From positions 19,367-83,366 of the forward strand of contig CAZOBB010000058.1 in the NCBI GenBank assembly GCA_964577975.1: a DNA stretch of 64,000 nt, given 5' to 3'. Both the position numbers and the translations under genes were made by a program. The stretch comes from an uncultured Thermodesulfobacteriota bacterium (GTDB taxonomy: Bacteria; Desulfobacterota; S145-22). The notes beneath the pieces are model-generated. The model was not told the origin of the DNA and did not search any database. It saw only the letters and a list, made by a program, of their open reading frames with translations. Of the stretch, positions 13,292 to 60,821 are shown in pieces. Positions within the stretch are counted from its first letter, which is position 1; the number at the start of each line of letters is the position of its first letter.

Positions 13292-13302
13292 AAGAGGTCC
13301 CC

Positions 13303-17320: not shown

Positions 17321-17329
17321 CCGGCACAG

Positions 17330-19808: not shown

Positions 19809-20902
19809 CCCGTTTCATCTTTTGTGGAGGAGGAACGGGAGGACACCTCTTTCCGGGAATCGCCATCGCCCAAGCCATCCGAAAAAAGGCGCCCGACAGC
19901 GCTATTCTCTTCGTGGGAACCCGCCGTGGCTTGGAAGAACGCATCCTTCCTACCTATGGCTTCGATTTTACACCTATCCAAAGCGCTGGCTTCAAAAACC
20001 TCGGTCTGATCAAAAAACTCAAGGCGCTCTTCATCCTGCCAGGGGGCGTGATCGAAGGGTTGCGCCTGTTACGATCCTTCAACCCCCATGTCGTCATTGG
20101 GCTAGGGAGTTACTCCGCCCTCCCCGTCATGATCGCAGGCATCCTAAAACGGACCAAACGGGTCCTCCAAGAGCAGAACAGCCTTCCCGGCCTCACCAAT
20201 CGCATCTTGGCTCCCTTCGCCCACAAGATCTTCATCTCCTTCGAGAACACACAGAGATGGTTTCCCAAGGCAAAAACCCTCCTCACCGGCAATCCCATCC
20301 GAGAAGAAATCTGTAGGAAAAGACAAACACCGTCTTCCCGCGAATCCTTTCACCTCCTCGTCTTGGGTGGAAGCCTCGGGGCCCATGCCATCAACGAACT
20401 GTGCGTGGCAACCCTTCCTTCTCTCCTCGCGTCGCATCCTTCTCTCCATATCCATATCCAAACCGGAAAAAACGATTACGCCATGGTCAAGCAAGCCTTT
20501 GAAAAATTTTCGGAGAGGGTTGTCGTATCCGACTTCATCGAAGACATGGCCTCCGTTTACAAATGGGCTCATCTTGTCATCTCGCGTGCGGGAGCCATCA
20601 CGCTTTCGGAGATCGCCGCTTGCGGCCTCCCCGCCATTCTCATTCCTTATCCTCACGCCGCGAACGATCATCAGACGGAGAACGCCAGGGCCTTCGTTTC
20701 CAAGGGAGGGGCTGTCATGTTCCTCCAAACTCAACTCCAAAAAGGGGTTTTCATCAATGTCCTCGAAGAATTTCTCCGCAACCCCCGAAAGCTTCAAGAA
20801 ATGGCGGACCGGATGAAATCGTTGGGGCGCCCCAAGGCGGCCGAAACCATTGCGGAATCCCTTTTGGCCCTCGCAAATCCCCGCGGAGGAGAAACATGGT
20901 GA
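19802..20902 (+). CDS. murG: Undecaprenyldiphospho-muramoylpentapeptide beta-N-acetylglucosaminyltransferase
   Basis: GGGTGGHLFPG, EQNSLPG, GNPIR, GGSLGA, RAGA, HQTENA. Confidence 0.97.
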   Translation: MVARFIFCGGGTGGHLFPGIAIAQAIRKKAPDSAILFVGTRRGLEERILPTYGFDFTPIQSAGFKNLGLIKKLKALFILPGGVIEGLRLLRSFNPHVVIGLGSYSALPVMIAGILKRTKRVLQEQNSLPGLTNRILAPFAHKIFISFENTQRWFPKAKTLLTGNPIREEICRKRQTPSSRESFHLLVLGGSLGAHAINELCVATLPSLLASHPSLHIHIQTGKNDYAMVKQAFEKFSERVVVSDFIEDMASVYKWAHLVISRAGAITLSEIAACGLPAILIPYPHAANDHQTENARAFVSKGGAVMFLQTQLQKGVFINVLEEFLRNPRKLQEMADRMKSLGRPKAAETIAESLLALANPRGGETW

Positions 20903-22278
20903 TTCAAAAACGCTTTTATAAGGTACACTTCGTCGGTATCGGGGGAATTGGCATGAGTGGTATCGCCGAACTTTTGCACAATCTTGGATACGAGGTTTCC
21001 GGCTCCGATTTAAAAGAATCCGAAAACACGCGGCGACTCGCCACCATGGGATGCACCATTCATTATGGTCACCACGCCGACCACGTCAAAGGGGCGCATG
21101 TCGCCGTTATGTCATCCGCCGTTCATCCCGACAATCCAGAGATCGTGGCCGCCCGCAATCTCCAAATCCCCGTGATCCCCCGCGCGGAGATGTTGGCCGA
21201 ACTCATGCGGATGAAACAGGGGATTGCCATCGCGGGAAGCCACGGCAAGACCACGACAACTTCTCTCATCGCCACCATCCTGAATCACGCCGAGCTGGAT
21301 CCTACCATCGTCATTGGGGGAAAGTTAAACAGCATCGGGGGAAACGCCCGCTTGGGAGAGGGAGACTACCTCGTGGCGGAGGCGGATGAAAGCGACGGCT
21401 CCTTTCTCAAGCTCAATCCTATCCTTGCCATCATCACCAATATCGACCCTGAACACATGGAGCATTTCAAGACCATGGACAATCTCCGCGAAGCCTTTAT
21501 CTCCTTCGCGAATAAAGTTCCTTTTTACGGAGCCGCAATCGTATGTCTCGATCACCCGGAGATCCAACGGATCCTCCCGAAAATACAGAAACGAATCGTC
21601 ACTTACGGCGTCTCCACGCAGGCCGACTTCCAAGCCACCAATATCCGCCAGGAAGAATTTGAAACCATCTTCGATTTGACCATTCGCCAGGTGCCATCGG
21701 GTGAAATACGCGTCCGAATGCCGGGGAGACACAATGCCCTGAATGCCTTAGCGGCAATCGCCACCGCCCAAGAGCTTGGTATCGACCTCGACACAACCAA
21801 GGCGGCACTTCACGCCTTCGAAGGCATCCAACGACGTTTCCAACTTCGTCACAACATCAACGATATCCTTATCATCGACGATTATGGTCATCATCCCAGA
21901 GAAATCGAAGCCACCCTTAAAGCGGCGAAAGCGGGGTGGAATCGAAGAGTTATCGCGGTGTTCCAGCCCCATCGCTATACTCGCGTTCGAGATCTATCGG
22001 ATGAGTTTCACCGCTGTTTCTACGAGGCGGACAAACTAATCGTTACAGACATCTACCCGGCTGGCGAGCTCCCCATTGAAGGGGTCCACGCCAAAAACAT
22101 CTATGAAGGAATCCTCCATCATGGCCATCGGGATGTCACCTACATCCCGAACAAGGAGGAAATTGCCTCCGCCCTCGCCTCCATCGTACAACCAAACGAC
22201 ATGGTCATCACTTTGGGCGCGGGAGACATTTGGAGGGTCGGTGAGGAACTGGCACGCTACCTAGAAAAAACCAAATGA
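20896..22278 (+). CDS. murC: UDP-N-acetylmuramate--L-alanine ligase
   Basis: HFVGIGGIGMSG, GSHGKTTTT, EADESDGSF, DDYGHHP, FQPHRY; start at ATG 20896 behind GGAGGAG. Confidence 0.97.
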   Translation: MVIQKRFYKVHFVGIGGIGMSGIAELLHNLGYEVSGSDLKESENTRRLATMGCTIHYGHHADHVKGAHVAVMSSAVHPDNPEIVAARNLQIPVIPRAEMLAELMRMKQGIAIAGSHGKTTTTSLIATILNHAELDPTIVIGGKLNSIGGNARLGEGDYLVAEADESDGSFLKLNPILAIITNIDPEHMEHFKTMDNLREAFISFANKVPFYGAAIVCLDHPEIQRILPKIQKRIVTYGVSTQADFQATNIRQEEFETIFDLTIRQVPSGEIRVRMPGRHNALNALAAIATAQELGIDLDTTKAALHAFEGIQRRFQLRHNINDILIIDDYGHHPREIEATLKAAKAGWNRRVIAVFQPHRYTRVRDLSDEFHRCFYEADKLIVTDIYPAGELPIEGVHAKNIYEGILHHGHRDVTYIPNKEEIASALASIVQPNDMVITLGAGDIWRVGEELARYLEKTK

Positions 22279-23195
22279 AGGTAAGGTGGATGACAACGCT
22301 GGAAAACCAATTCGGAGACGCTTTTGCCATGAATTATCCCCTGGCCCCGCACACCACTTTCAAAATCGGGGGCGCAGCCCAAGGGTTCCTCGTCGTCACG
22401 AGCGAAACACAGCTCGTTTCGGCTCTGACAACCCTGTTGGAGGAAAACGTTCCTTTCCTTGTTCTGGGAAAGGGAGCCAATCTAATCTTTTCTGACAGCG
22501 GATTCAAGGGATTGGTCATCCAACTGAAAGGGGAATTCGAGGAGATCAAAATTACCCATCACGATGAAGAAAACGTCTTCTTGGAGGCAGGAGCCGGCGT
22601 TGAAATGTCCCGGCTTCTCAATTATACCGCTAGGGCCGGTTTCAAAGGGCTGGAGCCCTTGACAGGAATTCCCGCCACTGTAGGGGGAGCCATCCGAATG
22701 AATGCGGGAATTCCCTCCTTCACCATTTCAGAAGCCCTTACATCCGTCGTATGTTTGACTCACACCCTTTCCACTGTGAGGATCGGAATACAGGATCTCT
22801 CCCCGTCGTACCGGTCCTTAAATCTACCGGACAGATGGATAATTCTCCGCGCCACGTTCAAGCTACGAAAAGGCTCTCCCGAAACCGTCCGAAAGGAGAT
22901 GGAAGCGTATCGAAATAAAAGGACAAGCCAGCGGTGGCGGAAATTCCCCTCCGCGGGGTCTATCTTCAAAAATCCCAAAGGGAAGTACGCGGGACAGCTT
23001 ATTGAATCGTGTGGTTTCAAAGGATACAAGATCGGGGATGCGCAAGTCTCCCCGGACCACGCGAATGTAATCGTAAACCTTGGAAACGCCCGAGCGAAGG
23101 ATGTTCTCCGTCTCATCGACCTTATCCAAAAAAGGGTGTTCGAAAAAACGGGAATTCATCTCGAGCCGGAGGTTGTCATTGCTGAAGAAGGATAA
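22275..23195 (+). CDS. murB: UDP-N-acetylenolpyruvoylglucosamine reductase
   Basis: TTFKIGG, GIPATVGGAIRMNAG, SAGSIFKNP, HANVIVN, LEPEV. Confidence 0.95.
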   Translation: MKVRWMTTLENQFGDAFAMNYPLAPHTTFKIGGAAQGFLVVTSETQLVSALTTLLEENVPFLVLGKGANLIFSDSGFKGLVIQLKGEFEEIKITHHDEENVFLEAGAGVEMSRLLNYTARAGFKGLEPLTGIPATVGGAIRMNAGIPSFTISEALTSVVCLTHTLSTVRIGIQDLSPSYRSLNLPDRWIILRATFKLRKGSPETVRKEMEAYRNKRTSQRWRKFPSAGSIFKNPKGKYAGQLIESCGFKGYKIGDAQVSPDHANVIVNLGNARAKDVLRLIDLIQKRVFEKTGIHLEPEVVIAEEG

Positions 23196-24117
23196 TCTCA
23201 AATCGCAGACGATCGGCGTTCTGATGGGGGGAATGTCCAAAGAGCGGGAAATCTCTCTCAAGACGGGAACGGCCATCGCGAACGCCCTGAAAAAGAAGGG
23301 TTACCACGTGGAACCGATCGACGTCCGAGAAGATGTCTGCCTTCAACTTAAAGAAAAGGGCATCGAAGTCGCTTTTATCGCCCTCCATGGCCGCTGGGGA
23401 GAAGACGGAACGATTCAAGGTCTTCTGGAAATTCTTAAAATCCCCTACACGGGATCGGGAGTTAAATCAAGCGCCAACGCCATGGATAAAATTACATCGA
23501 AGAAACTCTTTCTACAGGCGGGGCTTCCCACACCTCCCTACGACGTCTTGGACAAACCCACCCCAACTCCCATTCGTCCTCTTCCTCTTGTGGTCAAACC
23601 TACCATGGAGGGTTCCACCATCGGCGTTTCAGTAGTCAGATCAAAAAAAGAGTGGATCCAGGCCTTAAAAATCGCTTTCGAGAGCGACACGAAAATCCTT
23701 ATCGAACCGTTCATCGCGGGAAGGGAAATCACCGCCGCGATTCTTGATGGGATGCCCCTCCCCCTCATCCATATTGAACCCCACGAGGGATTTTATGACT
23801 ACACCTCCAAATACACACCCGGAAAGACGACCTACCACGTGCCCGCGGATGTGGACAAGGAAACGGAGAAACGGCTTACGACGGTCGCACTTCAGGCATA
23901 CGAAATTCTCGAATGCGAGGGATGTGCCCGCGTGGATATGATCCTATCCGAAGAAAGTGGGCCCATGATCCTGGAAGTCAACACCATCCCTGGCATGACT
24001 CCAACGAGCCTCGTTCCGAAAGCTGCTCAGGCGAAGGGTATGTCCTTCGAAGATCTCGCCGAGGCCATTCTTCTCTCAGCTTCACTAAAAACCATTCCAG
24101 GGGGAAAAAATAGGTGA
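23179..24117 (+). CDS. ddl: D-alanine--D-alanine ligase
   Basis: GG.SKEREISL, LHGRWGEDG.IQG, YTGSG, FYDYTSKY, EVNTIPGMT; TTG start behind GGAGG. Confidence 0.96.
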   Translation: MLKKDNLKSQTIGVLMGGMSKEREISLKTGTAIANALKKKGYHVEPIDVREDVCLQLKEKGIEVAFIALHGRWGEDGTIQGLLEILKIPYTGSGVKSSANAMDKITSKKLFLQAGLPTPPYDVLDKPTPTPIRPLPLVVKPTMEGSTIGVSVVRSKKEWIQALKIAFESDTKILIEPFIAGREITAAILDGMPLPLIHIEPHEGFYDYTSKYTPGKTTYHVPADVDKETEKRLTTVALQAYEILECEGCARVDMILSEESGPMILEVNTIPGMTPTSLVPKAAQAKGMSFEDLAEAILLSASLKTIPGGKNR

Positions 24118-28980: not shown

Positions 28981-29516
28981 GAGGCCCCCGTTTTATACCG
29001 TCGGAGACGCAATAGGTTAAAATAGTTCACGGTAAAATGCGCCAACATAGGCGTGAGGAGGGAACCGCTCAGGCAAAACGCCCCTCCAAGGATGTAGCCG
29101 ACGATCCACGCAACCACCCCCCATAGCAGAAAAGATCGTCGCCCCCCATAATGCAAAAAACCAAACAGGAATGAACTGAGGTGGATACCCGTCCATTGCA
29201 TCAAAACCCCGCGAAAAAGAAGTTCCTCCGCCCACGCCGACAAAAAGGAAAGAAACACGATATCGGAAAAACTCAAAGGAAGAAGGTAGCGCGCCAAAAG
29301 GGTATTGAGCCGTTGGAAAGGGGAAAACTTATCAAGCATCCGGCTTGTCACAACAAGTCCCAATCCTATTCCTAAACCCGCGAAAACCACTTTTCCCCAA
29401 AAAGGCCCCTCCTTGGGAATCCCCATTCTCCAGGGAAAGATATGCAGAAACGAGGCAAGAAGCCATGCAACGATTCCCATCGCAAGATAGAAAAGTCCCG
29501 CTCCTATCTTCATCAC
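28977..29516 (-). CDS. CPBP family (Abi/CAAX) intramembrane glutamic endopeptidase
   Basis: EE-x3-R (AEELLFRG), FGFLH and H-x3-N (AHFTVN) motifs. Confidence 0.88.
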   Translation of the reverse strand: MMKIGAGLFYLAMGIVAWLLASFLHIFPWRMGIPKEGPFWGKVVFAGLGIGLGLVVTSRMLDKFSPFQRLNTLLARYLLPLSFSDIVFLSFLSAWAEELLFRGVLMQWTGIHLSSFLFGFLHYGGRRSFLLWGVVAWIVGYILGGAFCLSGSLLTPMLAHFTVNYFNLLRLRRYKTGAS

Positions 29517-30529
29517 CGCTTGGGCCTTTCCTTCGTTGCGATCAGAAGGGTATTTCCCCCCCGTAACTCAATGGACTTTCGAAGAGCGAGTCCAGCCTCT
29601 TCTAGCCACTGTCCCGCCTGAGAAAGGCGGAAACAATCCCCCTTTGGCGTTCCCATCATCATCAAAAGGCGAAAAAGAACCGCCTCTCGAGGAAGGGTTT
29701 CCGTTTCATCCAAGAAATAGTCGAGAAGGAAAAGGTCTCCACCAGTTCTAAGTAACGCCGCCGCTTTTTGTAAAAGGAATCGATTGTCCTTTTCGGGATA
29801 GAGATGAATGAGATGAGAAATCAAGATTCGATCAAACGGCCCTTCGGGCAGTGAATCCGTATAAGCGTTACACGTAAAGAATCGTATTCGCGCCCCTTCA
29901 GAATCCGAGGCGAGCATTTTCTTCGTTATCTCCACGGCATCAGGAAGATCCGCCACCGTGACAGTCACATGGGGAACATGGCGTGCTATCGCAAGGGCAT
30001 ACCCTCCACCCCCTCCTCCAACGTCCAAAAAACGAGTAACGCCTTCCCACGAAACAGCACCCATCCATTCCTGCGCCACATAGCTGGCATGGGCCCGCAT
30101 GGCTCGCAGAAATAATTCAAGGGATTGTGGATAGGCATCCTTTTCCTTCTGGGTCGGCGGGATGCTTTCCCCCCTCCGCACACCTCCTTCGAGCCTCTCT
30201 CCCCATACCTCATAGAGATGATCGTGATGAATCAAATCGTTTACCATTTCCGGAAATTCTTCCAAACACCTCTTTATCTCACCCCGTAATTGATACCGTT
30301 CCCCTTGAAACTCAAAGATTCCAAGACTAACAAGGGCATTGAGAAACAGTCGCGCCCCCCTCGGAGACACCCGACAAGCCCTCGCAAATCCTTCTGCCGT
30401 AAGAGGGGGAAAAGTGGTCGATAAGAAACCCAGTTTGGCCGCAACGGTAAGAACTTTCGAGGAGGCATAACCCTCCTTCATCTGGAGAATCTCTGTCAGT
30501 CCTGTCCGTTCCTTTCCCATCTCGAGCAC
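29513..30529 (-). CDS. SAM-dependent O-methyltransferase with winged-helix dimerisation domain (Methyltransf_2-like)
   Basis: N-terminal wHTH (LFLNALVSLG) and SAM motif FLDVGGGGGGY; overlaps the next gene by 4 nt. Confidence 0.85.
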   Translation of the reverse strand: MLEMGKERTGLTEILQMKEGYASSKVLTVAAKLGFLSTTFPPLTAEGFARACRVSPRGARLFLNALVSLGIFEFQGERYQLRGEIKRCLEEFPEMVNDLIHHDHLYEVWGERLEGGVRRGESIPPTQKEKDAYPQSLELFLRAMRAHASYVAQEWMGAVSWEGVTRFLDVGGGGGGYALAIARHVPHVTVTVADLPDAVEITKKMLASDSEGARIRFFTCNAYTDSLPEGPFDRILISHLIHLYPEKDNRFLLQKAAALLRTGGDLFLLDYFLDETETLPREAVLFRLLMMMGTPKGDCFRLSQAGQWLEEAGLALRKSIELRGGNTLLIATKERPKR

Positions 30530-30532
30530 TAT

Positions 30533-31648
30533 CTACCTTTTTAAGGCCATTCCCGCATCCAAATCTTCCAACGTTTCGCGAAGCGCAGAGACGAGGAGAC
30601 GATTCTCTTCGCGTCTTTTTACTCCTATCCGAAGATACCGATTCCCCATCCCTCGAAACGAGCCGCAATGCCGGACAACGATTCCCCGTTTAGCAAGCGC
30701 ATGGTAGACTTCGTCGGCCGTAAACGTGGGCGCATTAACGGAAAGGAGAAAAAAATTCGCCTCTGAGAAAAAGGGAGACAACCAGGGAAGTTTCTGAATT
30801 TCTTTCATGAGCCAATCCCGTTCGTGTACGAGATATTGTCTGCTTCGTTCCATATAATCCTTTCCATATTCCAGGCAAAAAACCCCCGCTAATTGGGCCA
30901 GCGTGTTCACGTTCCAAGGAGGAAGAAAGGTCTTCCACCTCTCGATGAGAGTGGGATTGGCCACGGCATAGCCCAAACGAAGCCCTGGGATGGCAAAAGA
31001 TTTCGTCATGGATCGAAGCACCACAAGCCGGTCCCATCGTCGCACCCATTCGATGACGGAAGGAATTCGGGAAAAGGGAAGAAATGCCTCATCCACGACA
31101 ACGGTTCCCCCCACCTTCTCCGCCGAGCTCAACAACTCTTCCAATTCCGCTCTGTCGATTCCCCGACCGGTAGGATTGTTTGGCTGGCATAAAAACGCCA
31201 CCGCACCGTCGGTCATCACCTTGGCGATTCCTTCCAGATCGAACGAGAAGCTCTCCCCTTCAAGGGGAGGGACGTGCTCGATCTCCCAGTGGTGGACGGT
31301 ACATACCCGCTCATATTCAACGAACGTGGGAAAGGGAATAACCGCTTTCTTCCTCTCGTATAAAGACGCGAACGCAAAAAGGAGATCGGCGGTTCCATTC
31401 CCGACAATCACCCAGTCTTTTGAATAACCATGACAGTCCGCGATTCTATCCGTAAGGGTGGCTGCCGTAATCTCTGGATAGACGGAAATGGCTCGGAGAC
31501 GACGTACGAGAAACTCCTTCAATCCATCGGGAGGCCCAAGGGGATTGATACTGACGCTGAAATCTATAAAACGGTTTTCCCCTTCACCGGGATGGAGAAG
31601 AGATTCCAATGTCTCGGCTCCCCCGTGGAGGGGCGGGGAAGGCTTCAC
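30533..31648 (-). CDS. cobD: L-threonine-O-3-phosphate decarboxylase
   Basis: LHGG, DFSVSINPLG, CQPNNPTG, VDEAF, PLP lysine RSMTKSFAIPGLRLGY; adjacent to cobQ. Confidence 0.88.
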   Translation of the reverse strand: MKPSPPLHGGAETLESLLHPGEGENRFIDFSVSINPLGPPDGLKEFLVRRLRAISVYPEITAATLTDRIADCHGYSKDWVIVGNGTADLLFAFASLYERKKAVIPFPTFVEYERVCTVHHWEIEHVPPLEGESFSFDLEGIAKVMTDGAVAFLCQPNNPTGRGIDRAELEELLSSAEKVGGTVVVDEAFLPFSRIPSVIEWVRRWDRLVVLRSMTKSFAIPGLRLGYAVANPTLIERWKTFLPPWNVNTLAQLAGVFCLEYGKDYMERSRQYLVHERDWLMKEIQKLPWLSPFFSEANFFLLSVNAPTFTADEVYHALAKRGIVVRHCGSFRGMGNRYLRIGVKRREENRLLVSALRETLEDLDAGMALKR

Positions 31649-33177
31649 TTTTTTATCCCCTCTTCAATGATCCCCACGACCCGATCCATGTCCAACGCCT
31701 CACGGACCACCTTAGCCAATCTTGCCACACTCTCCATTAACCGCTGTTTGTAAAAGATCCCGGATCCCATAAGAGGCGGGATCCCTTTCCTCCGACGGAG
31801 GGAGTTCAAAAAATCGTGACGGAATCCATCGTTATCGAAGATACCATGAAGGTAGGTTCCCCACACCGTCCCCTTTTCATTAACAGCGCCATCCTCCACG
31901 TCACAAGGAACCCCATTGCGCCGCACGATCCTAAAGAGGGGAGACGCGCCTTGTCCCCGTCGCGTAACCCCCATGTGAATCTCGTATCCTTCCAACCGAT
32001 TCCCGCTTTCTCCTTCTATCTTCTCCGCCTCGACCAAGGTCGTCGTTTTCTCCGGTGCCATTACCGTTTCCACATCCAAAAGCCCCAGCCCCTCCATAAC
32101 CTCCCATCTCGACTCGACATGATGAGGGTCCCGAATCACACGGCCCAACATCTGATACCCGCCGCACAGTCCGACAACTGTTCCTCCTTTCGCCGCAAAG
32201 TCAACGATTTCATCCACCAGTCCACTATCCTGGAGGAATTGAAGATCGGCAAGGGTATTTTTGCTGCCAGGGATGATGACGGCATCATAATCGTCAAGTT
32301 CGTCTCCGGCAACGAGATATTCCACCAAAACGCCCGGTTCCATGGAAAGCACATCAAAGTCGGTGAAGTTCGAAATGTGAGAAAGCCGGATGACGCCTAT
32401 CCGAATATCTCCTTTTTGAGTTCCCATGCGCTTACGTAACCCCACGCTATCCTCTTCGGGAAGATAGAGATCATGGAAATACGGGATCACGCCAACCACC
32501 GGAACCGATGTTTTCTCTTCAATCATTGCAAGACCCGGCTCGAGCAAAGAAACATCCCCCCGGAATTTATTGACAATCATGCCTCTAATATAGTCCCGTT
32601 CCCCTTTCTCAAGGAGGGCGATCGTTCCATACAATGCGGCGAAAACTCCTCCGCGATCGATGTCTCCTACCAAAAGCACAGGCGCCTTCGCCATCTGGGC
32701 GGCCCCCATATTAACGAGGTCGTGCTCCTTCAAATTGATCTCTGCAGGGCTTCCCGCTCCCTCCATCAGGATCAAATCGTACCGATCCTTCAGAAACTCC
32801 AAACTCTCTAGCACCTTTTTCCTCAAACCCTCCTTTTTCCTATGATAGGTCCGCGCATCCATGTTGCCGTATACCTTGCCATGCACAATCACTTGAGATC
32901 CCGTATCAGAGGAGGGTTTAAGTAAGATGGGATTCATGTGAACACTAGGGGGAATCCCCGCGGCAAGGGCCTGAAACGCTTGGGCCCTTCCGATCTCTCC
33001 CCCTTCTTGGGTGATGAAGGAATTCAACGCCATGTTCTGAGCCTTGAACGGCGCCACACGAATCCCCTCCTCCGCGAAGATCCGGCACAAAGCGGCAACC
33101 AAGACGCTCTTTCCCACATGGGAACCCGTCCCCTGTATCATAAGGGTTCCCCTCAATGCTCCACCCTTATCCGTCAA
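31645..33177 (-). CDS. cobQ: Cobyric acid synthase
   Basis: QGTGSHVGKS, PFKAQNM, EGAGSPAEINL, DIDRGG, ISNFTDF, GLCGGYQMLG, GYEIH, GTYLHG. Confidence 0.96.
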   Translation of the reverse strand: MTDKGGALRGTLMIQGTGSHVGKSVLVAALCRIFAEEGIRVAPFKAQNMALNSFITQEGGEIGRAQAFQALAAGIPPSVHMNPILLKPSSDTGSQVIVHGKVYGNMDARTYHRKKEGLRKKVLESLEFLKDRYDLILMEGAGSPAEINLKEHDLVNMGAAQMAKAPVLLVGDIDRGGVFAALYGTIALLEKGERDYIRGMIVNKFRGDVSLLEPGLAMIEEKTSVPVVGVIPYFHDLYLPEEDSVGLRKRMGTQKGDIRIGVIRLSHISNFTDFDVLSMEPGVLVEYLVAGDELDDYDAVIIPGSKNTLADLQFLQDSGLVDEIVDFAAKGGTVVGLCGGYQMLGRVIRDPHHVESRWEVMEGLGLLDVETVMAPEKTTTLVEAEKIEGESGNRLEGYEIHMGVTRRGQGASPLFRIVRRNGVPCDVEDGAVNEKGTVWGTYLHGIFDNDGFRHDFLNSLRRRKGIPPLMGSGIFYKQRLMESVARLAKVVREALDMDRVVGIIEEGIKK

Positions 33178-34409
33178 AGCGTCCGTTTACCTTCCACTTG
33201 AATGGGTTTCAGAATGGGAGAAAACGGCTGATCCAACACATTGAAAAGACTGTGTTTTTCCTCCGTCTTGAAGCGCGAAAGGATCTCACCCTCATACGAG
33301 AGGAAAATCACCTCGAGCGGAAAGTCATTCCCGACAATACGGGAGAGATTGCGATGCGCACGTTGACAAATCCTAAAGAAGATATTTCCAGCCCCTTCCC
33401 TAATGAGAAGCTCCAGCCCTTCGGAAGGGATTTCACACTCCTTCAGGGCACTCAGCAGTTCCTCAGACGCCTTTTCCACCAGCGCAATATGATAAACCGG
33501 CACCAAGGAGGTAATAAAGTTCTTCGGGCTCATCTTCATCTTTCCCGTCATGGACTTCAGAAGCTTCGAAAAATGACTTACGTAAAATACCTTTCCAAAG
33601 CCAAGTGCCTTCGCCTGTGTCAATGCGTATTCGATGTGATCGGCAACGAGAACAAACGATTCAGGTGGCACGTCAGGAAAAATCTTTTTGGCAAACCGCT
33701 CACTCCTCGCTCCAGGAGTCAAAATGACTTCATTCACGCCGATCTCTTTGGCAATGGTCAGCGCTTGCGTTATCAAACGATGCCACGCCTCTTGGGTGGC
33801 TAAACGGCTTAAAGCGGGCGTTTCCTGGACAGCCACGCCGCCCTCTATCCCTGCACGCTCCATGAGCGACTGACGCGCGAGCCTTTCTCCCTCGGGGACC
33901 TCTATGGTCACCGAAAGCTGACAGATACTCCCAAAATGCATGTACTTGGAAAGTTCAAGAAGATTTTCCCGGATCAAGTTCTGGGATTCCGGGAAAATGG
34001 CATCCCCCCCCACCGGGATAGGCAAACCAGGTTTCGCCACCTTTCCCACCCCAAAACCACCCCGGATCTCAAAAGAAAGGCTCCCGCTTTGGTAGCTGAC
34101 GTTTTCTTCATAAGCGAGATGCACATGCACCTCGGGTGAATTGGGATCTGCCGCCACGGTCAACGCCTTCGCCGTCACCGTTCCCTCACCCTTTTCAAAC
34201 CCCTTAATAGGAAACCAAAAACGCTTTCCACTCGGTAAGAGAAGAGAGACCGACTCCGGCGCGTCACCGGTTAAGAGACAGATAGCCGCCGCCTTCGCCG
34301 CCCCTGCCGCGCATGTTCCCGTCGTGTATCCAAGCCGATTCTTTCTTTCAATCCTCTGCCGCTCTGTTCGATAGCCATTCCCGCGGCCATTCTGGGCATT
34401 TCCCGTCAT
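33174..34409 (-). CDS. cbiD: CbiD-like (cobalt-precorrin-5B C1-methyltransferase) protein, strongly divergent; start uncertain (34409 or 34478)
   Basis: GYTTGTCAAGAAKAA and GG.GVGKV.KPGL..PVG motifs are kept, but several other conserved CbiD motifs are altered (see findings). Confidence 0.7.
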   Translation of the reverse strand: MTGNAQNGRGNGYRTERQRIERKNRLGYTTGTCAAGAAKAAAICLLTGDAPESVSLLLPSGKRFWFPIKGFEKGEGTVTAKALTVAADPNSPEVHVHLAYEENVSYQSGSLSFEIRGGFGVGKVAKPGLPIPVGGDAIFPESQNLIRENLLELSKYMHFGSICQLSVTIEVPEGERLARQSLMERAGIEGGVAVQETPALSRLATQEAWHRLITQALTIAKEIGVNEVILTPGARSERFAKKIFPDVPPESFVLVADHIEYALTQAKALGFGKVFYVSHFSKLLKSMTGKMKMSPKNFITSLVPVYHIALVEKASEELLSALKECEIPSEGLELLIREGAGNIFFRICQRAHRNLSRIVGNDFPLEVIFLSYEGEILSRFKTEEKHSLFNVLDQPFSPILKPIQVEGKRTL

Positions 34410-34684
34410 GCCCGCATTGCCACTCCGATTGAAATTATAGTTTCTTCTACGTTTATTCTGTGACTTCAACGATGGCACTCCCAGACGGCTATCTTTTACT
34501 TTTCAACACTTTTTCTGTCATGTAGGCAAAAATAACGATTATAACTAAAAAAAGACGATGAATCCTCTGCTTACATTTTCCCCTTTTTTCTTTCCTCCCA
34601 CTTTCCCAAAAACGAAAAAGCACCTGATCGTGATTGCAAGGGTAGTTCCCTCTTACTAAAACTTCTCTTCAAAGTCAACCGTTT

Positions 34685-35107
34685 TCACCTTTCCCATAGA
34701 TAATCAGCAACAAGCCTTTTGAATTGGGACGGAATATTACGTGATTTGTTTTTCCTGTAATCATAAAAGACCTGCACAGATTTTCCCCGGCTAAAGACGA
34801 TCTCCGGTTCCCCAACGCGCCGTATCTCGTAGGAAAACTCAAAGCTTTTGTTCCCCATCTTAGAAATCCACACAACCCCCTCTACCCGTTGTTCCTCCAG
34901 TTCAATGGGACGTAGATAGTCACAGGATACCCGCGCGAGAACAAAGGGGAAATCAGAGGGCGAGGAACTTCCCAAAACCCGCACGAAAAATTCCTTCCGG
35001 CCCTCTTCGTAATAGGTCAGATAGACCGCATTATTCACATGGCCCATCGCGTCAAGGTCCTTAAACCTAAGAGGGATCTCGAACACAAACTTTTTCGTCC
35101 CGCTCAT
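34685..35107 (-). CDS. Acyl-CoA thioesterase (4HBT/YbgC-like hotdog fold)
   Basis: RFKDLDAMGHVNNAVYLTYYEEGR; start set at ATG 35107 behind GGAGGA. Confidence 0.9.
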   Translation of the reverse strand: MSGTKKFVFEIPLRFKDLDAMGHVNNAVYLTYYEEGRKEFFVRVLGSSSPSDFPFVLARVSCDYLRPIELEEQRVEGVVWISKMGNKSFEFSYEIRRVGEPEIVFSRGKSVQVFYDYRKNKSRNIPSQFKRLVADYLWER

Positions 35108-35796
35108 GATTCCTCCCGCTCGATATATTTCACTCTGTACTCCCGGCTTGTCGCTCGCCATCGTTCCATCATCTCATCACCGTAAAGTTCATAAAATCCC
35201 TTCAAGACCTCCTCAAATGGAAAGTCGGCATAATACCCTCGTTGCCTTACATACTCCACATGAAGCCTCCCGTCTCTTGTGCGGGCATGGAACAATGCCG
35301 GGTTTTTCCCATCAAACTCCACGGGAATGAGTCCCAAACGTTCGCACATCCGCAGATCAAATGTTGGTGTCACCTTTACCCACTTTTCATGAAGGTAAAG
35401 CTCGTTGTAGCCATGAAAATAGAATACATCCGTCTCCATCATGGTGGCAAGTCCCGGAGGAACCAGACGGTTTCGAATGTCAGCAAGTCTCAAGCGGGCA
35501 GGGATTCCCGCCGCCCGAGCCAAGGCTGCCAAGACTATCGCCTTTTGGACACAATATCCCTCCCCCCTCCGGAGAATCACTCCTGCCCGGTAATCTCCCC
35601 TCTCTTCGAAAGGCACATACGGATTATAATAAATTTCATCCCGTACAAAATAGAAAAGGGCCTTTGCTCTTTCTTCCACGGGTGAAATTCCCCGTAAAAG
35701 CCTCTTTACCTGCGCCTGAATTACTGAACTGTCTGTTTCCAGGTAATAGGTAGGCATCAAATACCTTTTCATCCACTCTTCAGATGTCTCTTTCAT
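35104..35796 (-). CDS. Transglutaminase-like family protein
   Basis: FYFVRDEI.Y, catalytic Cys (GYCVQKA), His (FHGYNE) and Asp (PTFD). Confidence 0.88.
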   Translation of the reverse strand: MKETSEEWMKRYLMPTYYLETDSSVIQAQVKRLLRGISPVEERAKALFYFVRDEIYYNPYVPFEERGDYRAGVILRRGEGYCVQKAIVLAALARAAGIPARLRLADIRNRLVPPGLATMMETDVFYFHGYNELYLHEKWVKVTPTFDLRMCERLGLIPVEFDGKNPALFHARTRDGRLHVEYVRQRGYYADFPFEEVLKGFYELYGDEMMERWRATSREYRVKYIEREES

Positions 35797-35943
35797 TTCT
35801 TTGTACCTATCTCCCCGTCTGGCAAAAGTCTCTCATAAGCGTTTTAGAGATTCAAGCATTACTTTCCTTTCCCCCCTCTTGACCCTTCTAAAATGATGAT
35901 TATTTATTAAAGTGAAAAAAATAAGAAAAAGGGGGTGTGAAGA

Positions 35944-36387
35944 ATGAGTTGGCTTGTACCACTGAGAACATCGCGCGAAACGGAACGATCTCTATTCCCA
36001 ACCCGTTTACTGGACACGTTATGGGAACCCTTAAGCTGGGGACTGGAACCACTCGTGGGAGAGATGGCTCCCGTGGATCTCAAAGAAACGGACGATGAAT
36101 ATATCTTGAAGGTAGAACTTCCTGGTCTCGAAAAAGATGATGTGCAGATCGCGTTGGAGCAGAATGTCTTGACCATCCGTGGGGAGAAAAAAGAAGAGGA
36201 AGCGAAGGAGAATGAGTCCTTCCATAAAAAAGAGATCCGATATGGATGGTTCGAGCGGAGCTTCACCCTCCCTGGTGATATTAACGAAAAGAAGATCAAT
36301 GCAAAGATGAAAAACGGTGTGCTGACTATCCATGTCCCCAAAAAGGAAACGGCCAAACCGAAAAGGATTCCCATCACGGTTCAGTAA
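35944..36387 (+). CDS. Hsp20/alpha-crystallin small heat shock protein
   Basis: VDLKETDDEY, ELPG, RYGWFERSFTLP, A.MKNGVLTI.VPK. Confidence 0.95.
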   Translation: MSWLVPLRTSRETERSLFPTRLLDTLWEPLSWGLEPLVGEMAPVDLKETDDEYILKVELPGLEKDDVQIALEQNVLTIRGEKKEEEAKENESFHKKEIRYGWFERSFTLPGDINEKKINAKMKNGVLTIHVPKKETAKPKRIPITVQ

Positions 36388-36514: not shown

Positions 36515-37333
36515 ATGAAGTTTTCAGGCATAGAGAAGATCGGTTTTATCGGGGCGGGAAAAATGGCGGAAGGCATCATCAAAGGCCTCATCGAAAGCGA
36601 TCTCATCAAGGCGGAGGAGATCATCGCAGCAGACATCGACGCGGAGCGTCTTCAAACTCTTCACAAAAAGCTTGGAATTCTCACCATGCCCAATAGGGAA
36701 CTTGCCCAAACGTGTCATCTCCTTTTCCTTTCCATCAAACCTCAGCAAGCCGATGCCGTTTTCCAAGAACTCGAAGACATCTCCTTCGAGGATAAACTTG
36801 TCCTTTCCATCATGGCTGGCGTTCCCACCCACCGAATTGAAAACGGTTTGGGGAAAGCCGTCCATGTCATTCGCATCATGCCAAACATTGCCGCTACGGT
36901 TCAAGCGGCGGCTTCCGCATTCTGTCTAGGGAAATGGGCGACCCAAAAGGATGCAACACTCGCCCGGACGATACTTGAAACCTTTGGCACGGCAGAACAG
37001 ATCGACGAGTCCCTCCTGGATGCCGTCACCGGACTCAGCGGTAGCGGTCCCGCCTATGTCTTTTCCTTTATCGAAGCCCTCGCGGATGGGGGAGTTCTCA
37101 TGGGTCTTTCGAGGAAAACCGCCCTCAACCTAGCCATCCAAACGGTTTACGGTGCCGCTAAACTCATTTTGGAAACGGGAGATCACCCCGCCCTTCTCAA
37201 GGAAAAGGTCACCTCCCCCGGTGGCACCACCATTCACGGTCTTGCCAAGATGGAAGAAGCCGGCTTCCGAAATGCGCTGATTCAAGGAGTCAAACGAGCG
37301 ACCGAACGTTCCCAAGAGTTGGGAAAAGAGTAA
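36515..37333 (+). CDS. proC: Pyrroline-5-carboxylate reductase
   Basis: GFIGAGKM, KPQ, RIMPN, GLSGSGPAYV, VTSPGGTT. Confidence 0.96.
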   Translation: MKFSGIEKIGFIGAGKMAEGIIKGLIESDLIKAEEIIAADIDAERLQTLHKKLGILTMPNRELAQTCHLLFLSIKPQQADAVFQELEDISFEDKLVLSIMAGVPTHRIENGLGKAVHVIRIMPNIAATVQAAASAFCLGKWATQKDATLARTILETFGTAEQIDESLLDAVTGLSGSGPAYVFSFIEALADGGVLMGLSRKTALNLAIQTVYGAAKLILETGDHPALLKEKVTSPGGTTIHGLAKMEEAGFRNALIQGVKRATERSQELGKE

Positions 37334-37353
37334 AGGCAACACGCCTTCCCGAT

Positions 37354-37387
37354 AAAAAAAGGGCCCGCACTTACATGCGGGCCCTTT
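37354..37387. terminator. Bidirectional intrinsic terminator between proC and the porin-cytochrome operon
   Basis: AAAAAAA-GGGCCCGCA-CTTACA-TGCGGGCCC-TTT; the 7-U tail lies on the minus strand. Confidence 0.85.
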
Positions 37388-37406
37388 CCCCATACAGGCG
37401 TTTCCA

Positions 37407-39590
37407 CTAAAAGGTGTAATTCAACCCCACGTTGAAGATCCAGAGTTCTCCATCGGCGTCATAAAGATAGGGTTCGTCATCGGTGTATTTCCGATACGTT
37501 ACCACACCCGCCAACTCAAGGGCCTTGTAGAGTTTCACGTTACACCCCAAGGAACACTCAAACCGGCTTTGATCCAGATCCGAATAATCCTCGAAACCGG
37601 TATAATCCGTCGTATAGGCGACACTCCAAACGGGAGACGGATCATTCCACGTCGTGAATCCCGCCGGCGGTCCCGAGAAATGGAGGGAATCAAAATCCGC
37701 TTTTGACTTCGTGTAAGAGGCATCAAGATTCACACTTATCCGCTTGGTAGGCGTAAAGACCGCCGAGGCGTACAGGACATGATTGCGGATATCATAATCG
37801 GTATCGTCGCTCATGGAGCCAACCTGGCTCACCATACCCTGCCCGCCTCACCCGGCGAAGAGATCGGTACAGACGTAACTCCCATACCGATCATACTCGT
37901 AGTTGTACCCAACGGAAAAGCTCAACTTTTTCATCGGCATGAACCAGAAATTGATCCCCGCCATATACCGATCGGCATCCCAGTTCGTGTGGTCGTTATT
38001 CTGATGCTGATACTGGAACAACCCATTGATCGAGATCGTCGTCTTCGGCATGTAGGTTGCCGACAATTTGATCTCATGGGAATCTTCCGGCTGGTTCGAA
38101 CGATCGTTCATCCGATAGTCCGCGTCGAAAACTTTGTAATACGGCGTGGTCCCCACACCCAGATCCTGAACCTCTTGACAACTTCCATTTGCATTGCCAA
38201 ACGGATCGCTCAAATGTTTGTAGGTATACGCCACCCGATATTTCCAGTGGGCGTTCGGCCGACCATTGACCGCCGCCTTGAAGGTATGGGTCTTTGTTTC
38301 CGTTTCACCACTGTTGGTCACGGCCAAATTGTCCCGATCAATGTCGTCGAACTCGTAGCCTAGCCGGATGGTGGTGCACCGATTCAACCGGTAGGCGGCA
38401 TCCAAGTTGACAGTATACTCGTCGCGATCGATCGCGGATTCTCTCACGAAATCGAAGTCATCCGTCGCGTGATACGCGGGATCCATTGGAGCAAAGTGCT
38501 CATTCACCGTAATCTTCGCATCGTCACTGTTGATATCGATATAGCGGAAGCGACCCGACAACGTCAGCTTGCGCCTCATGAAATCTTTCGTAACGCGGAG
38601 ATTGTACACATGTTGATCCACATCCAGATTGTTGTAGTCGTCTTCCATCGTCGTACACACAAACGAGCCATAGACGGTCGTATCTCCAGGCAGATCCGCT
38701 CGTGCCTTGACGACATGCGTGTCCTTTTTGGAATCGGGAATCAGGTTTCGAATATCGTCCGCATTTACGATATTCAAACGCCCTTCAAAAACCGTCGTGT
38801 GCGACCCTGCGACGACAGGATCGTAATGGATCATCTGTGTCGAGGCGTTGTTGTCGAATTTCCGGTGGGTATAGTTGTAATCCACCGTCACCATCCCAAC
38901 CTTCAAGGTCGCACCACCGGAAAGGTCGTTGGTGGCTTGATCAATCCGGTTTCCGTAACCCACCACGTGACAGGGGGTACACTTTCCCGTCATCACGGTC
39001 CCCTGTTTCCAACCGTGGCGAATCTCGTTTCGCCACCCCGCGTGGAAGGTCAGAGCCGGGAAGGACGGCACCGTTACTTTGGCATTCATTCGGGTCAACT
39101 GCCGGTAGATCTGATAGTTCTTTCCCGGCTGTTGATCCGTATATTGCCATTTCTGGGCCCCTTCCAATTCCCCCTCGCTGGAAAAGATGGGATTCACAAC
39201 CATCTGCCCATGTAGCTCGTCCCAGAAAAGGGGATCGTGACGGGTCCTGTGAACGAACTTGTTGTAGTCCATCTTGAATCGGAAGACCCGGTTGATATCC
39301 AGGTTCACGTTACCCGCATTATCATCTTGCGTGGTATAACGGGCATTCAAGTCAACAAAACTCTTGCCAAACGATCCCGTATACCCGAATAATCCCGTCG
39401 GGCTTCCTCCGGTATCGTCATACTCGGCCACATTTGTCTTATTATCATCCGTGCTGGTCGTGTAATATCCAGCGCCCACTTTCAGCCGGTAGGCCTTCTC
39501 CGCCTTCTTTTCCTCGGCGAAGGCCGCTCCCAGGGAAGTGACGCAGATAAATACAGCGGCAACCAGCAGGATCAGGGTTGAACGTCTCAT
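37407..39590 (-). CDS. MtrB/PioB-like outer-membrane beta-barrel with a CxxCH motif and predicted selenocysteine (in-frame UGA at 37850-37848), 727 aa
   Basis: ORFs 37848-39644 and 37407-37835 are in frame (GGG TGA GGC GGG CAG GGT ATG). Signal peptide after SD GAGGAG at ATG 39590; alternating beta-strand pattern; C-terminal beta-signal VGLNYTF only in the downstream part; SECIS-like hairpin after the UGA; directly follows a decaheme cytochrome. Confidence 0.82.
37813..37850 (-). promoter_or_regulatory. Bacterial SECIS-like element (UGA recoding signal)
   Basis: UGA-GGCGGGCAGGGU-AUG-G-U(bulge)-GAGCCA-GGU-UGGCUC-C-AU: 6-bp upper stem, G-starting GGU apical loop 23 nt after the UGA, bulged U. 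Confidence 0.75.
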
Positions 39591-39665
39591 GAGTCTCCTC
39601 CTTCTCGCTGATGATTGTTTTCTCATTTCAAATGATTTGGACACGATTTTCCTCCGCTTGCGTAT

Positions 39666-40652
39666 TTACCGCGTTAAAGCCTTTCCCTGTCCCGGCACCG
39701 ACAACGATGGCAGGTCGGATCCGTGGATCTGACTATGACACTGTGTGCACCGTGTTCCCATCGCCATCTGCGAGCTGTGGGGATTTGGCGAAATCCTGTT
39801 TCCTCCATTGGGAGAATAGAATGTCGCATGAAAATGGAGATGGTGGCACTGTAGGCACAGGAACGGTTCGTTCTGTTTCAGCAGGTTGTCCGCCACCGTT
39901 CCATGCGGATCATGGCAGATCGTACAGTCTTCCATCACTGGTGCGTGTTCATAGGTAAACGGTCCCTGCTTGTCCGCATGGCACTTCCAGCAGAGATCGT
40001 TGATTCGCTCATCCGTTTTGAGATTGTGTAAACTGCTGCCATGATTCTCATGACAATCCGAGCACTTCATCTTCCCTTCCCGTACCGGATGGTGAGAAGG
40101 ATAGCTCTCCTTCGCCCTGATGTCGGCATGACACTGGTAACACAGTTCCGGCTCCGCCATCTTTAATGTCCCTTTGGCGGGATCCTGGTGGATCTTGTGA
40201 CAATCGACACAGGTCACATCGTTGAGGGCATGCTCGTTACCGCGCCAATCCATCGTGGCACCGTCCGTATGGCACTGCAAACAAATCGCTGACGCTTCGC
40301 CCGGAGTGATACCTCCTTCCTCCCCAACGTTGGTAAAACGGATAATCTTTGAGGTATCCCCGTCGTTTTCGATATGGACGCTACCCGGGCCATGGCAAGA
40401 CTCGCATCCCGCCTTCCCCTTCACTTCATAGTCGGCAACTCTACCATGAATGGTTCCCTTGAAAGCTTTCACCAGGTCTTCATGGCAGTCTGCGCACGCG
40501 TCCGTTCCCTCGTACGTTGCTCCCTTGATTGCCACAGGCATCTTAATCATCGCCTTGCTTTTCCCCTTGGTTGAGGCGCAAGTCCCCATGACCATCGCCA
40601 CCGAAATCATCAGGGCGAGCATCATCAGGGTATGAATTACGCTTCGCTTCAT
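39666..40652 (-). CDS. MtrA/DmsE-like decaheme c-type cytochrome
   Basis: Ten CxxCH motifs: CADCH, CESCH, CLQCH, CVDCH, CYQCH, CSDCH, CWKCH, CTICH, CLQCH, CTQCH; export signal; SD AAGGAGG. Confidence 0.93.
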   Translation of the reverse strand: MKRSVIHTLMMLALMISVAMVMGTCASTKGKSKAMIKMPVAIKGATYEGTDACADCHEDLVKAFKGTIHGRVADYEVKGKAGCESCHGPGSVHIENDGDTSKIIRFTNVGEEGGITPGEASAICLQCHTDGATMDWRGNEHALNDVTCVDCHKIHQDPAKGTLKMAEPELCYQCHADIRAKESYPSHHPVREGKMKCSDCHENHGSSLHNLKTDERINDLCWKCHADKQGPFTYEHAPVMEDCTICHDPHGTVADNLLKQNEPFLCLQCHHLHFHATFYSPNGGNRISPNPHSSQMAMGTRCTQCHSQIHGSDLPSLSVPGQGKALTR

Positions 40653-41054
40653 TTAGTTCCTCCTTCGTTTCGCAATGACTAATACCTACTTCCAATCCTG
40701 CAGCAACAATTCAAACTTATTCTCCAACCACGAATCAATAATCCCCTCTCTTCACCTCCTTTCTTCTTGTTCGATGTTCCCGCCATTTATGTTTTATTGA
40801 CTTTCCCATAAAGGGCAGGATGTAAAAAATGTCAAAAATCGCCCATCGTCGATTTGCTATTTATTATAGTAAAACTTTTCACAAATGCAAGTGTTTCCAT
40901 TAATTTTTCCGATAAAAATATTGGAATGCGATTATTTATCTCTATATCATAATCATTATTATTAAAATTCTTTTTGGCCAAAGGGCTTGACAAAATTCCC
41001 TTTCTATAATAAAGGGGAAACCCTATAATATAAATATACAAGGGAGGGAAAATT

Positions 41055-41324
41055 TTGGCCAATCATCCATCAGCATGGAAGAGAATCCGACAAAATAAAA
41101 AAAGAAATCTCAGAAATAAATATTATCGAACACGGATGAAAACATTCATCAAACGCGTCCGGGAAGCCATAAAAAAGAAAGATGCCGACGCGGCGGAAAA
41201 ACAGTTGCAAATCGCCAAGCGCATCATTGCCAAGACCGCTTCCAAGGGGGTCATCCATAAACGTACGGCGGCCCGTAAGATTTCACGTCTAACGCGTCAG
41301 GTGAATGCCCTACGGACATCATAG
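41055..41324 (+). CDS. rpsT: 30S ribosomal protein S20
   Basis: MANHPSAWKRIRQ...KGVIHKRTAARKISRL; TTG start behind AGGGAGG. Confidence 0.96.
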   Translation: MANHPSAWKRIRQNKKRNLRNKYYRTRMKTFIKRVREAIKKKDADAAEKQLQIAKRIIAKTASKGVIHKRTAARKISRLTRQVNALRTS

Positions 41325-41346
41325 ATCTAACCCTTTCATCCTTTCC

Positions 41347-41383
41347 AGGGTAGCGCAGAGGGTTTTCTCTGGCGCTACCCTTT
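41347..41383. terminator. Hairpin between convergent rpsT and aroK, probable terminator
   Basis: AGGGTAGCGC-AGAG-GGTTTT-CTCT-G-GCGCTACCCT-TT, about 14 bp stem. Confidence 0.65.
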
Positions 41384-41405
41384 CTCCATGAACATGCTAC
41401 CCCTT

Positions 41406-41930
41406 TTAAAAGTAATCGAGTGAGTCCAGTATCTCCTGTACCGCCTCCGAAGGAGTTTTTTGACTGTTTTCAATTTTAAGATCCGCATATTTTTCATAAA
41501 GGGGATACCGTTCGCAAAAGAGATCCTCGAATCGTTGCCGTGGGCGCATCGAAATCCCTCGAGTAGCAAAATCACGGATTCTCTGCTCGAGCGTTGCGAG
41601 ATTCACGTCTAAAAAGACGATGACTCCCTTCGTTCTTACGTGTTTCATCGCTTTCTCGCTATACACGGCGCTGCCTCCCGTCGCAACAATGACACGCCTA
41701 GGATCAAATTCGAGAAGGATCTTCTCTTCCATCCTCCGCAGAGCCTCATAACCCTCCCGATCCACAATGTCTTGTAGAGAGCAATTCGCAACCGTTTCGA
41801 TCAGCCTGTCCGTGTCCACAAATCCATATCCCATCCTTTCGGCGAGGAGCCTGCCTACCGTGCTCTTTCCTGCCCCTGGCATCCCGACTAGAATAACACT
41901 TTCTCCTTCGCGCCACACCCTTTTTTTCAT
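41406..41930 (-). CDS. aroK: Shikimate kinase
   Basis: Walker A GMPGAGKST, DTD, IVATGGS, R.PLYEKYAD; start set at ATG 41930. Confidence 0.9.
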   Translation of the reverse strand: MKKRVWREGESVILVGMPGAGKSTVGRLLAERMGYGFVDTDRLIETVANCSLQDIVDREGYEALRRMEEKILLEFDPRRVIVATGGSAVYSEKAMKHVRTKGVIVFLDVNLATLEQRIRDFATRGISMRPRQRFEDLFCERYPLYEKYADLKIENSQKTPSEAVQEILDSLDYF

Positions 41931-59622: not shown

Positions 59623-59629
59623 GACGAAC

Positions 59630-60772: not shown

Positions 60773-60792
60773 ACCTCCTCCTTTGCCCGGAA

Positions 60793-60821
60793 AACCTACC
60801 AAAAAGGTTTCGTACTGTCAA
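60793..60821 (-). promoter_or_regulatory. Sigma70-type promoter for carAB
   Basis: TTGACA (60821-60816), 17-nt spacer, TAGGTT (60798-60793). Confidence 0.6.

Follow-up and report, generated by a model that had tools for sequence, protein, structure and literature searches.

The described systems closest to the locus reported here are outer-membrane electron conduits in which the gene for an MtrA-type decaheme cytochrome is followed by that for a beta-barrel protein. MtrB, the barrel of the Shewanella MtrCAB complex (6R2Q chain B; TIGR03509/PF11854), has neither heme nor selenocysteine (Sec). By gene content, PioAB and MtoAB are MtrAB-type modules without MtrC, and we know of no heme motif or Sec in the PioAB and MtoAB barrels. 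In Cyc2, the heme motif belongs to a cytochrome domain at the N terminus, which a smaller barrel follows. Cyc2 is a fused monoheme cytochrome-porin of iron oxidizers, a barrel polypeptide with one CXXCH motif (bioRxiv 10.1101/228056; PMC8406198). Heme and Sec occur together in MccSep (ExtKL, GSU2937/2936), a pentaheme selenoenzyme of Geobacter sulfurreducens that reduces polysulfide and selenite and whose Sec stands in a D-G-U-P loop (D323-G324-U325) beside a His/Cys-ligated heme (PMC13510729). Finally, a 2026 review of the prokaryotic selenoproteome lists NF041027, with WP_272940843.1 as an example, as a selenoprotein family; its members are described there as outer-membrane barrels of the MtrB/PioB type that contain a single Sec and lack a recognized redox motif (PMC13188914). 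Here, we analyzed a stretch of 64,000 nucleotides, called the window below, from an uncultured Thermodesulfobacteriota bacterium (assembly GCA_964577975.1, contig CAZOBB010000058.1 of 134,870 bp, positions 19,367 to 83,366). On its minus strand, at 37407..39590, lies a barrel gene of this family that is interrupted by an in-frame UGA. The best explanation overall, in which we have considerable confidence, is that a single gene encodes an outer-membrane selenoprotein of 727 residues, a GSU2204-family member with an MtrA-like partner.

Translation of the minus strand from 39590 to 37407 gave one frame of 727 codons that ends at a TAG stop and whose sole internal stop is a TGA at codon 581 (37850..37848). 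The list of open reading frames (ORFs) cuts this frame in two, at 37848..39644 (598 aa with a GTG start, or 580 aa if the ATG at 39590 is taken) and at 37407..37835 (142 aa). A preliminary description of this DNA, which worked from the letters alone, had joined the two parts into a protein of 727 aa; the junction that it quoted around the UGA matches the window exactly, and translation bears out the single frame. A Shine-Dalgarno sequence, AAGGAGG, was read on the minus strand at 39597..39603, 7 nt ahead of the ATG (39590..39588). As had also been described, the upstream part begins with a typical signal peptide (MRRSTLILLVAAVFICVTSLGAAFA/EE), the downstream 142-aa part has none, and the protein ends in VGLNYTF; the full terminus, FNVGLNYTF, resembles an outer-membrane beta-signal. 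The 146 codons past the UGA and the TAG stop (37407..37847, minus strand) cover the last five barrel strands and this signal, and they evolve as coding sequence, with amino acids kept and synonymous sites varying. About 22 nt past the full-length TAG, we read a strong intrinsic terminator on the minus strand (37354..37384), GGGCCCGCA-TGTAAG-TGCGGGCCC followed by T7, which was absent from the output of a consensus scanner. No comparable terminator structure stands 3' of the internal TGA, so that one is present only after the full-length frame. We have next to no doubt that 39590..37407 is one gene. The tryptic peptide of the recoded frame that spans residue 581 would be YGSYVCTDLFAG-U-GGQGMVSQVGSMSDDTDYDIR.

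The barrel protein scored 553.1 bits (E 8.4e-166; curated cutoff, 350) against NF041027, "GSU2204 family CXXCH-containing (seleno)protein" (GSU2204_Se_pt_1). The match runs from residue 14 to residue 580 and covers model positions 3 to 580 of 580, the model ending at the Gly before the TGA. The window protein thus has the score, the CXXCH motif, and, directly after this "part 1" model, a UGA past which the same frame runs on to the C terminus. The family that the preliminary description had named was therefore the right one, and its guess that the protein is computationally known but uncharacterized also holds, since NCBI and the 2026 review catalog the family and we found no functional study of it in the searched literature. 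Reference 61 of the review, the Global Ocean Sampling paper cited for the family, makes no mention of cytochromes or outer-membrane proteins. The only experimental hint on the family comes from a transcriptome table that lists GSU2204 and its neighbor GSU2203 (omcK) as genes upregulated with hematite and magnetite. The window protein shares the CXXCH motif of the family, named after G. sulfurreducens GSU2204, and its GSU2203-family decaheme neighbor mirrors the adjacent locus tags GSU2203 (omcK)/GSU2204. We found no structural difference in the window copy; its source is an uncultured Thermodesulfobacteriota-like lineage.

We then compared the codon-581 column among homologs. A word-indexed search returned 17 homologs in addition to P0001, the window's own 580-aa product, and 15 of these 17 end at the same Gly as that product, at identities from 88% down to 29%. 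At the DNA level, the window was aligned with 14 homologous loci (∼30 to 90% identity), of which seven are related metagenome-assembled genome (MAG) loci from Thermodesulfobacteriota and unclassified bacteria and seven are more distant metagenomic loci. All 15 sequences have TGA at the column, never TAA or TAG. The frame continues past the TGA for 146 codons in the window and for 140 to 159 codons in 13 of the loci, all ending in Y-x-F; in the remaining locus, L017, it continues for at least 103 codons, up to the contig end. An exhaustive profile search yielded 866 representative clusters, with one representative per 50%-identity cluster and 202 of them at E < 1e-30, and a stop falls at the Sec column in 118 of the top 150 family representatives. 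An alignment of homologs at this column, for which the preliminary description had called, placed Cys there in five full-length proteins (P0015, of 722 aa, P0027, P0028, P0031, and P0037) and Gly in two. At the level of sequence, this alternation of Sec and Cys is the classic signature of a selenoprotein family, with the Sec form predominant. In the C-terminal part of the protein, the close subfamily also has a C679-S-L-G-C683 motif (37542-37556, minus strand), absent in the distant loci L009 to L012, which could form a subfamily-specific disulfide.

Downstream of the UGA, the core of a putative bacterial Sec insertion sequence (SECIS) element lies at 37816..37830 on the minus strand. It consists of a 6-bp stem, GAGCCA/UGGCUC, and the apical loop GGU; the hairpin starts 17 nt past the UGA, and its loop starts 23 nt from it. 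Across the 15 sequences, 95.6% of cells in the stem are paired, and compensatory double substitutions are found at three of the six pairs, from G-C to A-U or C-G and from A-U to G-C. Neither the pairing nor the covariation of the hairpin was reached in any of 500 shuffles, and all slid registers were far worse. In the eight closest sequences, 118 degenerate codons are invariant in amino acid, but no more than 17 of them (14%) are also invariant in nucleotides; these 17 include the four consecutive S-Q-V-G codons of the hairpin and the GGG before the UGA. The apical loop is GGU or GUU in all sequences but L017, and it lies 20 to 23 nt from the UGA. In L017, the loop of the homologously placed hairpin lacks G, and a five-codon insertion after the UGA (L017:3124-3186) carries another hairpin, GGCAC-AGUUG-GUGCC, 20 nt from the UGA. 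To judge from these sequences, the SECIS may have been displaced or replaced in L017.

The consensus rules for bacterial SECIS (bSECIS) elements, as summarized in PMC13188914, specify a loop of 3 to 9 nt with G in its first two nucleotides, a stem of 4 to 16 bp, a distance of 16 to 37 nt from the UGA, and a minimum free energy of −7.5 kcal/mol or less. The window hairpin fits them in stem (6 bp), loop (GGU), and distance (23 nt). The preliminary description had likened it to the SECIS of Escherichia coli fdhF, including a bulged U. What stands of this likeness is a conserved and covarying hairpin, GAGCCA-GGU-UGGCUC, 23 nt out, just past the UGA and within the 16- to 37-nt range, with a small loop that opens with G and then G or U. 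The window hairpin differs from the E. coli element in its 6-bp stem, its 3-nt loop, and its marginal stability, and the bulged U is not conserved. We rejected the bulge as a shared feature: pairing G28-C45 with the bulged U lowers stability, and the flanking pairing varies among homologs. No match to Rfam was found at gathering thresholds in the whole window, and a permissive scan of 37300-41500 gave only subthreshold terminator hits; Rfam does not cover bacterial SECIS elements of this kind.

Genes for Sec decoding were found beside a related operon. In L012, a minus-strand segment (L012:2-686) holds the gene for tRNA-SeC (591-686) and the 5' part of selA, 182 codons long (2-547). Both lie directly upstream of the decaheme-barrel operon, a few hundred bases away, and are divergent from it. 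At least that carrier therefore decodes Sec, and a genomic linkage of the Sec machinery with the selenoprotein operon is possible in L012.

Several results weigh against the explanation given at the outset. The fold energy of the hairpin is marginal (−7.4 kcal/mol for the core, −8.2 in context, and −9.5 for the 30-nt local fold), and in a bulge-free scan with the published bSECIS rules, the hairpin fell 0.1 kcal/mol short of the cutoff. The equivalent hairpins in L009 and L011 reach only about −4 kcal/mol, the 63-nt fold is no stabler than shuffled sequences (z = 0.31), and the generic bSECIS criteria are met by 38 of 701 arbitrary in-frame control positions of the gene (5.4%). Given these weak energies and the control positions that pass, the case for the hairpin rests on comparative evidence and not on energy. 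The 64-kb window contains no tRNA-Sec gene, nor selA, selB, or selD among the size-matched ORFs that were scanned. Two full-length homologs, P0021 (L013) and P0080 (L014), have Gly at the Sec column, encoded by genuine GGT codons, and distant full-length relatives that bear the CXXCH motif have neither Sec nor Cys there. In the searched literature, selenium incorporation has been shown for no member of the GSU2204 family. L013 and L014 retain both the CXXCH motif and the upstream decaheme gene despite the GGT codon at the Sec/Cys column, which indicates that the selenol or thiol is dispensable in some lineages. On balance, the invariant TGA, the aligned Cys in five homologs, the covarying hairpin, and the selA and tRNA-Sec genes beside the operon of a relative uphold the recoding put forward in the preliminary description, and UGA codon 581 (37848..37850, minus strand), in the loop of predicted strands 21 and 22, is very probably read as Sec.

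The gene immediately upstream of the barrel gene (39666..40652, minus strand) encodes a 328-aa periplasmic MtrA/DmsE-like decaheme c-type cytochrome of the GSU2203 family. This assignment follows from hidden Markov model scores and a motif count: the protein has ten CXXCH motifs and reached 451.8 bits against NF041028 (cutoff, 325) and 267 bits against TIGR03508 (DmsE decaheme; cutoff, 192). Its residues 40-316 also match the MtrA chain 6r2q_A (E 3.6e-54). A decaheme homolog stands directly upstream of the barrel gene in 17 of 17 related loci, Cys and Gly forms included. In the window, the two genes stand alone as an operon, flanked by the divergent rpsT and the convergent proC, a synteny common to the close MAGs. 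The intergenic region between the decaheme gene and rpsT (40653..41054) presumably holds the operon promoter; a minus-strand TTGCAT-16 nt-TATAAT within it is a candidate that was absent from the scan output. No MtrC-type gene is present in the window's operon, which in this respect, and in the order of a decaheme gene followed by a barrel gene, resembles PioAB and MtoAB. At L009, a distant Sec-type locus, a 1155-aa multiheme protein with a weak Pfam hit to an MtrC/MtrF domain and a 107-aa ORF are encoded ahead of the decaheme and barrel genes (L009:346-5216). That locus is a three-component MtrCAB-like variant, absent from the window.

We modeled the barrel protein with AlphaFold2 from an 18-sequence alignment. 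The model has 26 strands, with a mean predicted local distance difference test (pLDDT) score of 65.5, mostly >80 in strands and <50 in loops, and a predicted template modeling score of 0.58. The top Foldseek match was MtrB (6r2q_B; E 1.6e-16; template modeling [TM] scores of 0.53/0.58), the next match standing at 3.7e-8 with a TM score of ∼0.3. The description of the protein as MtrB-like was thus apt for its fold and its decaheme partner but not for family membership, as the match to TIGR03509 (MtrB/PioB; cutoff, 240.05) was confined to residues 324-458 and scored 23.5 bits. A live Pfam scan of the barrel gave no hit at an E value of ≤0.01, precomputed PF11854 hits being recorded for several homologs, and a profile search against PDB sequences gave no hit. 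All even-to-odd strand junctions of the model are tight turns of 2 to 5 residues, and the long, low-confidence loops are all odd to even. MtrB has tight periplasmic turns and long surface loops, its strand 1/2 loop lying at the surface (PMC7198977). By this comparison, the tips of two long strand pairs, 7/8 with the CXXCH motif and 21/22 with Sec581, are both predicted on the extracellular side; counting back the five confident strands from the C terminus places Sec581 on the same side. With its predicted 26-strand barrel, its tight turns, and its position after an MtrA-type decaheme gene, the window gene resembles that of MtrB; it differs in having a CXXCH motif and Sec in predicted surface-side loops and a sequence below the family thresholds. 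The decaheme cytochrome and the barrel probably form an MtrAB-like complex.

The single c-type heme attachment motif, C204-T-P-C-H208 (38967..38981, minus strand), lies in the loop of predicted strands 7 and 8 of the model. Although near invariant, it had played no part in the interpretation given by the preliminary description. Of 137 representatives, 136 (99%) have C204, and the same count holds for C207 and for H208; CXXCH occurs in 143 of the top 150. Among the 137 representatives, G580 is conserved at 91% and H114 at 86%, and no other His, Met, or Cys comes near that level. Like Cyc2, the window protein would thus be an outer-membrane barrel with its own single CXXCH; unlike in Cyc2, the motif (residues 204-208) is not N-terminal but falls in the loop that joins predicted strands 7 and 8, and Cyc2 has neither a decaheme partner nor Sec. 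Homology between the two was not detected. The relatives that have the heme motif without Sec or Cys argue that heme binding as such does not strictly require the selenol.

MccSep offers a second comparison. It shares with the window protein the combination of a c-type heme and Sec and a Geobacter-type setting of extracellular electron transfer; the D-G that precedes its Sec also precedes Sec in 80 of the 118 family representatives, the window protein having A-G. MccSep is a soluble periplasmic multiheme cytochrome with five CXXCH motifs, whereas the window protein is a barrel with one. We found no homology to MccSep/ExtKL (NF040886), as an NCBIfam scan of the barrel gave only NF041027 and the weak TIGR03509 match. 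By analogy, the example of MccSep indicates that heme-plus-selenol chemistry exists in a Geobacter-type physiological setting, and since it reduces polysulfide at a Sec beside a heme, the idea that comparable chemistry takes place at the cell surface becomes concrete and open to test.

From these elements, we propose a mechanism whose functional part is tentative. The UGA is very probably decoded as Sec via the small downstream hairpin, and the barrel gene is probably cotranscribed with the MtrA-like decaheme gene, the barrel presumably sheathing that cytochrome. The two-gene module could then constitute a self-contained outer-membrane electron conduit, in which the role of a separate MtrC-type surface cytochrome would fall to the barrel heme and a nearby or opposing selenol as the redox terminus that faces outward. 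That heme and Sec make up a surface-exposed redox site is possible, but we hold it with less than even confidence. Bolder, and unlikely at present, is the suggestion that the barrel heme and Sec581 meet at the surface mouth as a heme-selenol catalytic center fed by the partner's ten hemes, which would make the module a complete extracellular reductase or oxidase. Two properties of the model speak against such arrangements. It is of moderate quality, with pLDDT below 50 in both functional loops, which leaves their placement relative to each other and to the partner hemes unfixed, and it sets strands 7/8 and 21/22 on roughly opposite walls of the barrel.

Alternatively, Sec581 may be unlinked to the barrel heme. 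It may form a local selenenyl-sulfide with Cys574, or serve at the surface as a thiol-type antioxidant or a porin-gating redox sensor. Cys574 (37869..37871, minus strand) is read from the sequence seven residues before Sec, in the same strand-loop region, and is invariant in the 13 closest homologs; many bacterial selenoproteins are, moreover, thiol-oxidoreductase-like (PMC13188914). The preliminary description had favored a selenenyl-sulfide bond in a C574-x6-U581 arrangement. In the wider family, however, only 54 of the 118 representatives of the Sec type have this residue, and the five Cys forms all lack it, so we rejected the pair as a family feature, and the bond cannot be the general mechanism of the family. 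A role apart from the heme is further disfavored by the review, which lists no redox motif for the family (PMC13188914), and by the 99% conservation of CXXCH together with the Sec column. We therefore regard a heme-unlinked Sec as doubtful.

The remaining alternatives dispense with Sec. In the first of them, the UGA would be read through as Trp, Cys, or Gly by near-cognate suppression or under an alternative genetic code. In its favor, the column holds Trp in the database entry P0017 and Gly in two full-length relatives. P0017 is, however, a twin of P0016, whose DNA has TGA, and its Trp arose because the annotator applied an alternative translation table; the Gly forms, as described above, have genuine GGT codons. 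TGA is also the ordinary stop of 17 of the 39 other ORFs of the window, and an alternative genetic code is thus not the explanation. A hairpin with a G-first loop at SECIS distance, the Cys at the column, and the selA and tRNA-Sec genes of L012 all favor Sec over another amino acid, and we consider read-through of this kind very improbable.

In the second, TGA would be a genuine stop, and the locus would yield a 580-residue protein and a separate 142-residue protein from the ATG of codon 586, either as a split barrel or as two unrelated products. Gene callers and GenBank annotate the locus in this way: a close relative is split into two hypothetical proteins, RTZ89372.1 and RTZ89373.1, the latter being the post-UGA piece. 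The ATG stands five codons past the TGA, and a GAGG lies 11 to 14 nt upstream of it. This ATG is nonetheless unconserved, other codons occupying its place in L003, L007, L009 to L012, and L015 to L017. TAA is the stop used most often in the window, yet all 15 sequences carry TGA at the column and none has TAA or TAG; in every case the second part follows the first in frame without a spacer, and the Cys-form homologs are continuous proteins. In addition, the C-terminal piece lacks a signal peptide yet holds the strands and the beta-signal needed for outer-membrane insertion, and the RNA hairpin is conserved. Two separate products are, in our judgment, hardly credible. Finally, a nonsense mutation or sequencing error in a pseudogene has nothing but the interrupted frame in its favor and is of negligible probability, given that the same TGA recurs in 14 independent assemblies down to ∼30% protein identity, that 118 representative clusters end at the column, and that the downstream 146 codons evolve as coding sequence.

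The recoded gene lies in an ordinary chromosomal housekeeping context, as indicated by the division and cell wall (dcw) genes at 11273-24117 (plus strand), which include a penicillin-binding protein/FtsI-like transpeptidase gene, murF, murD, and ddl. A cobalamin biosynthesis cluster with cobD, cobQ, and cbiD occupies 29513-34478 (minus strand), beside a methyltransferase weakly similar to FlxJ/BchU-type enzymes. By eye and by tblastn, the 89-codon ORF with a TTG start at 41055-41324 (plus strand) is rpsT (S20), with 77 to 81% identity in related MAGs. Four further ORFs, of 553 aa (2820-4481, minus strand), 469 aa (59609-61018, plus strand), 230 aa (35104-35796, minus strand), and 156 aa (35907-36377, minus strand), matched nothing in NCBIfam at the thresholds applied; that of 156 aa, beside proC, is kept in related MAGs at 77 to 83% identity.

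The window gene adds a member to a cataloged, uncharacterized selenoprotein family and is not a new kind of system. The practical gain is its correct annotation, as standard gene calling and GenBank miss an outer-membrane selenoprotein of a large family. A porin with a covalent heme site and Sec, paired with an MtrA-like decaheme wire, has no characterized counterpart, and the scientific gain is a sharpened hypothesis on such a heme- and Sec-bearing porin. If a heme-selenol center does exist, Sec would either be a ligand of the heme or stand next to it, as in MccSep, and the module would be a complete outer-membrane reductase or oxidase that works directly on extracellular chalcogens (elemental sulfur, polysulfide, selenite) or minerals without an MtrC-type surface cytochrome.

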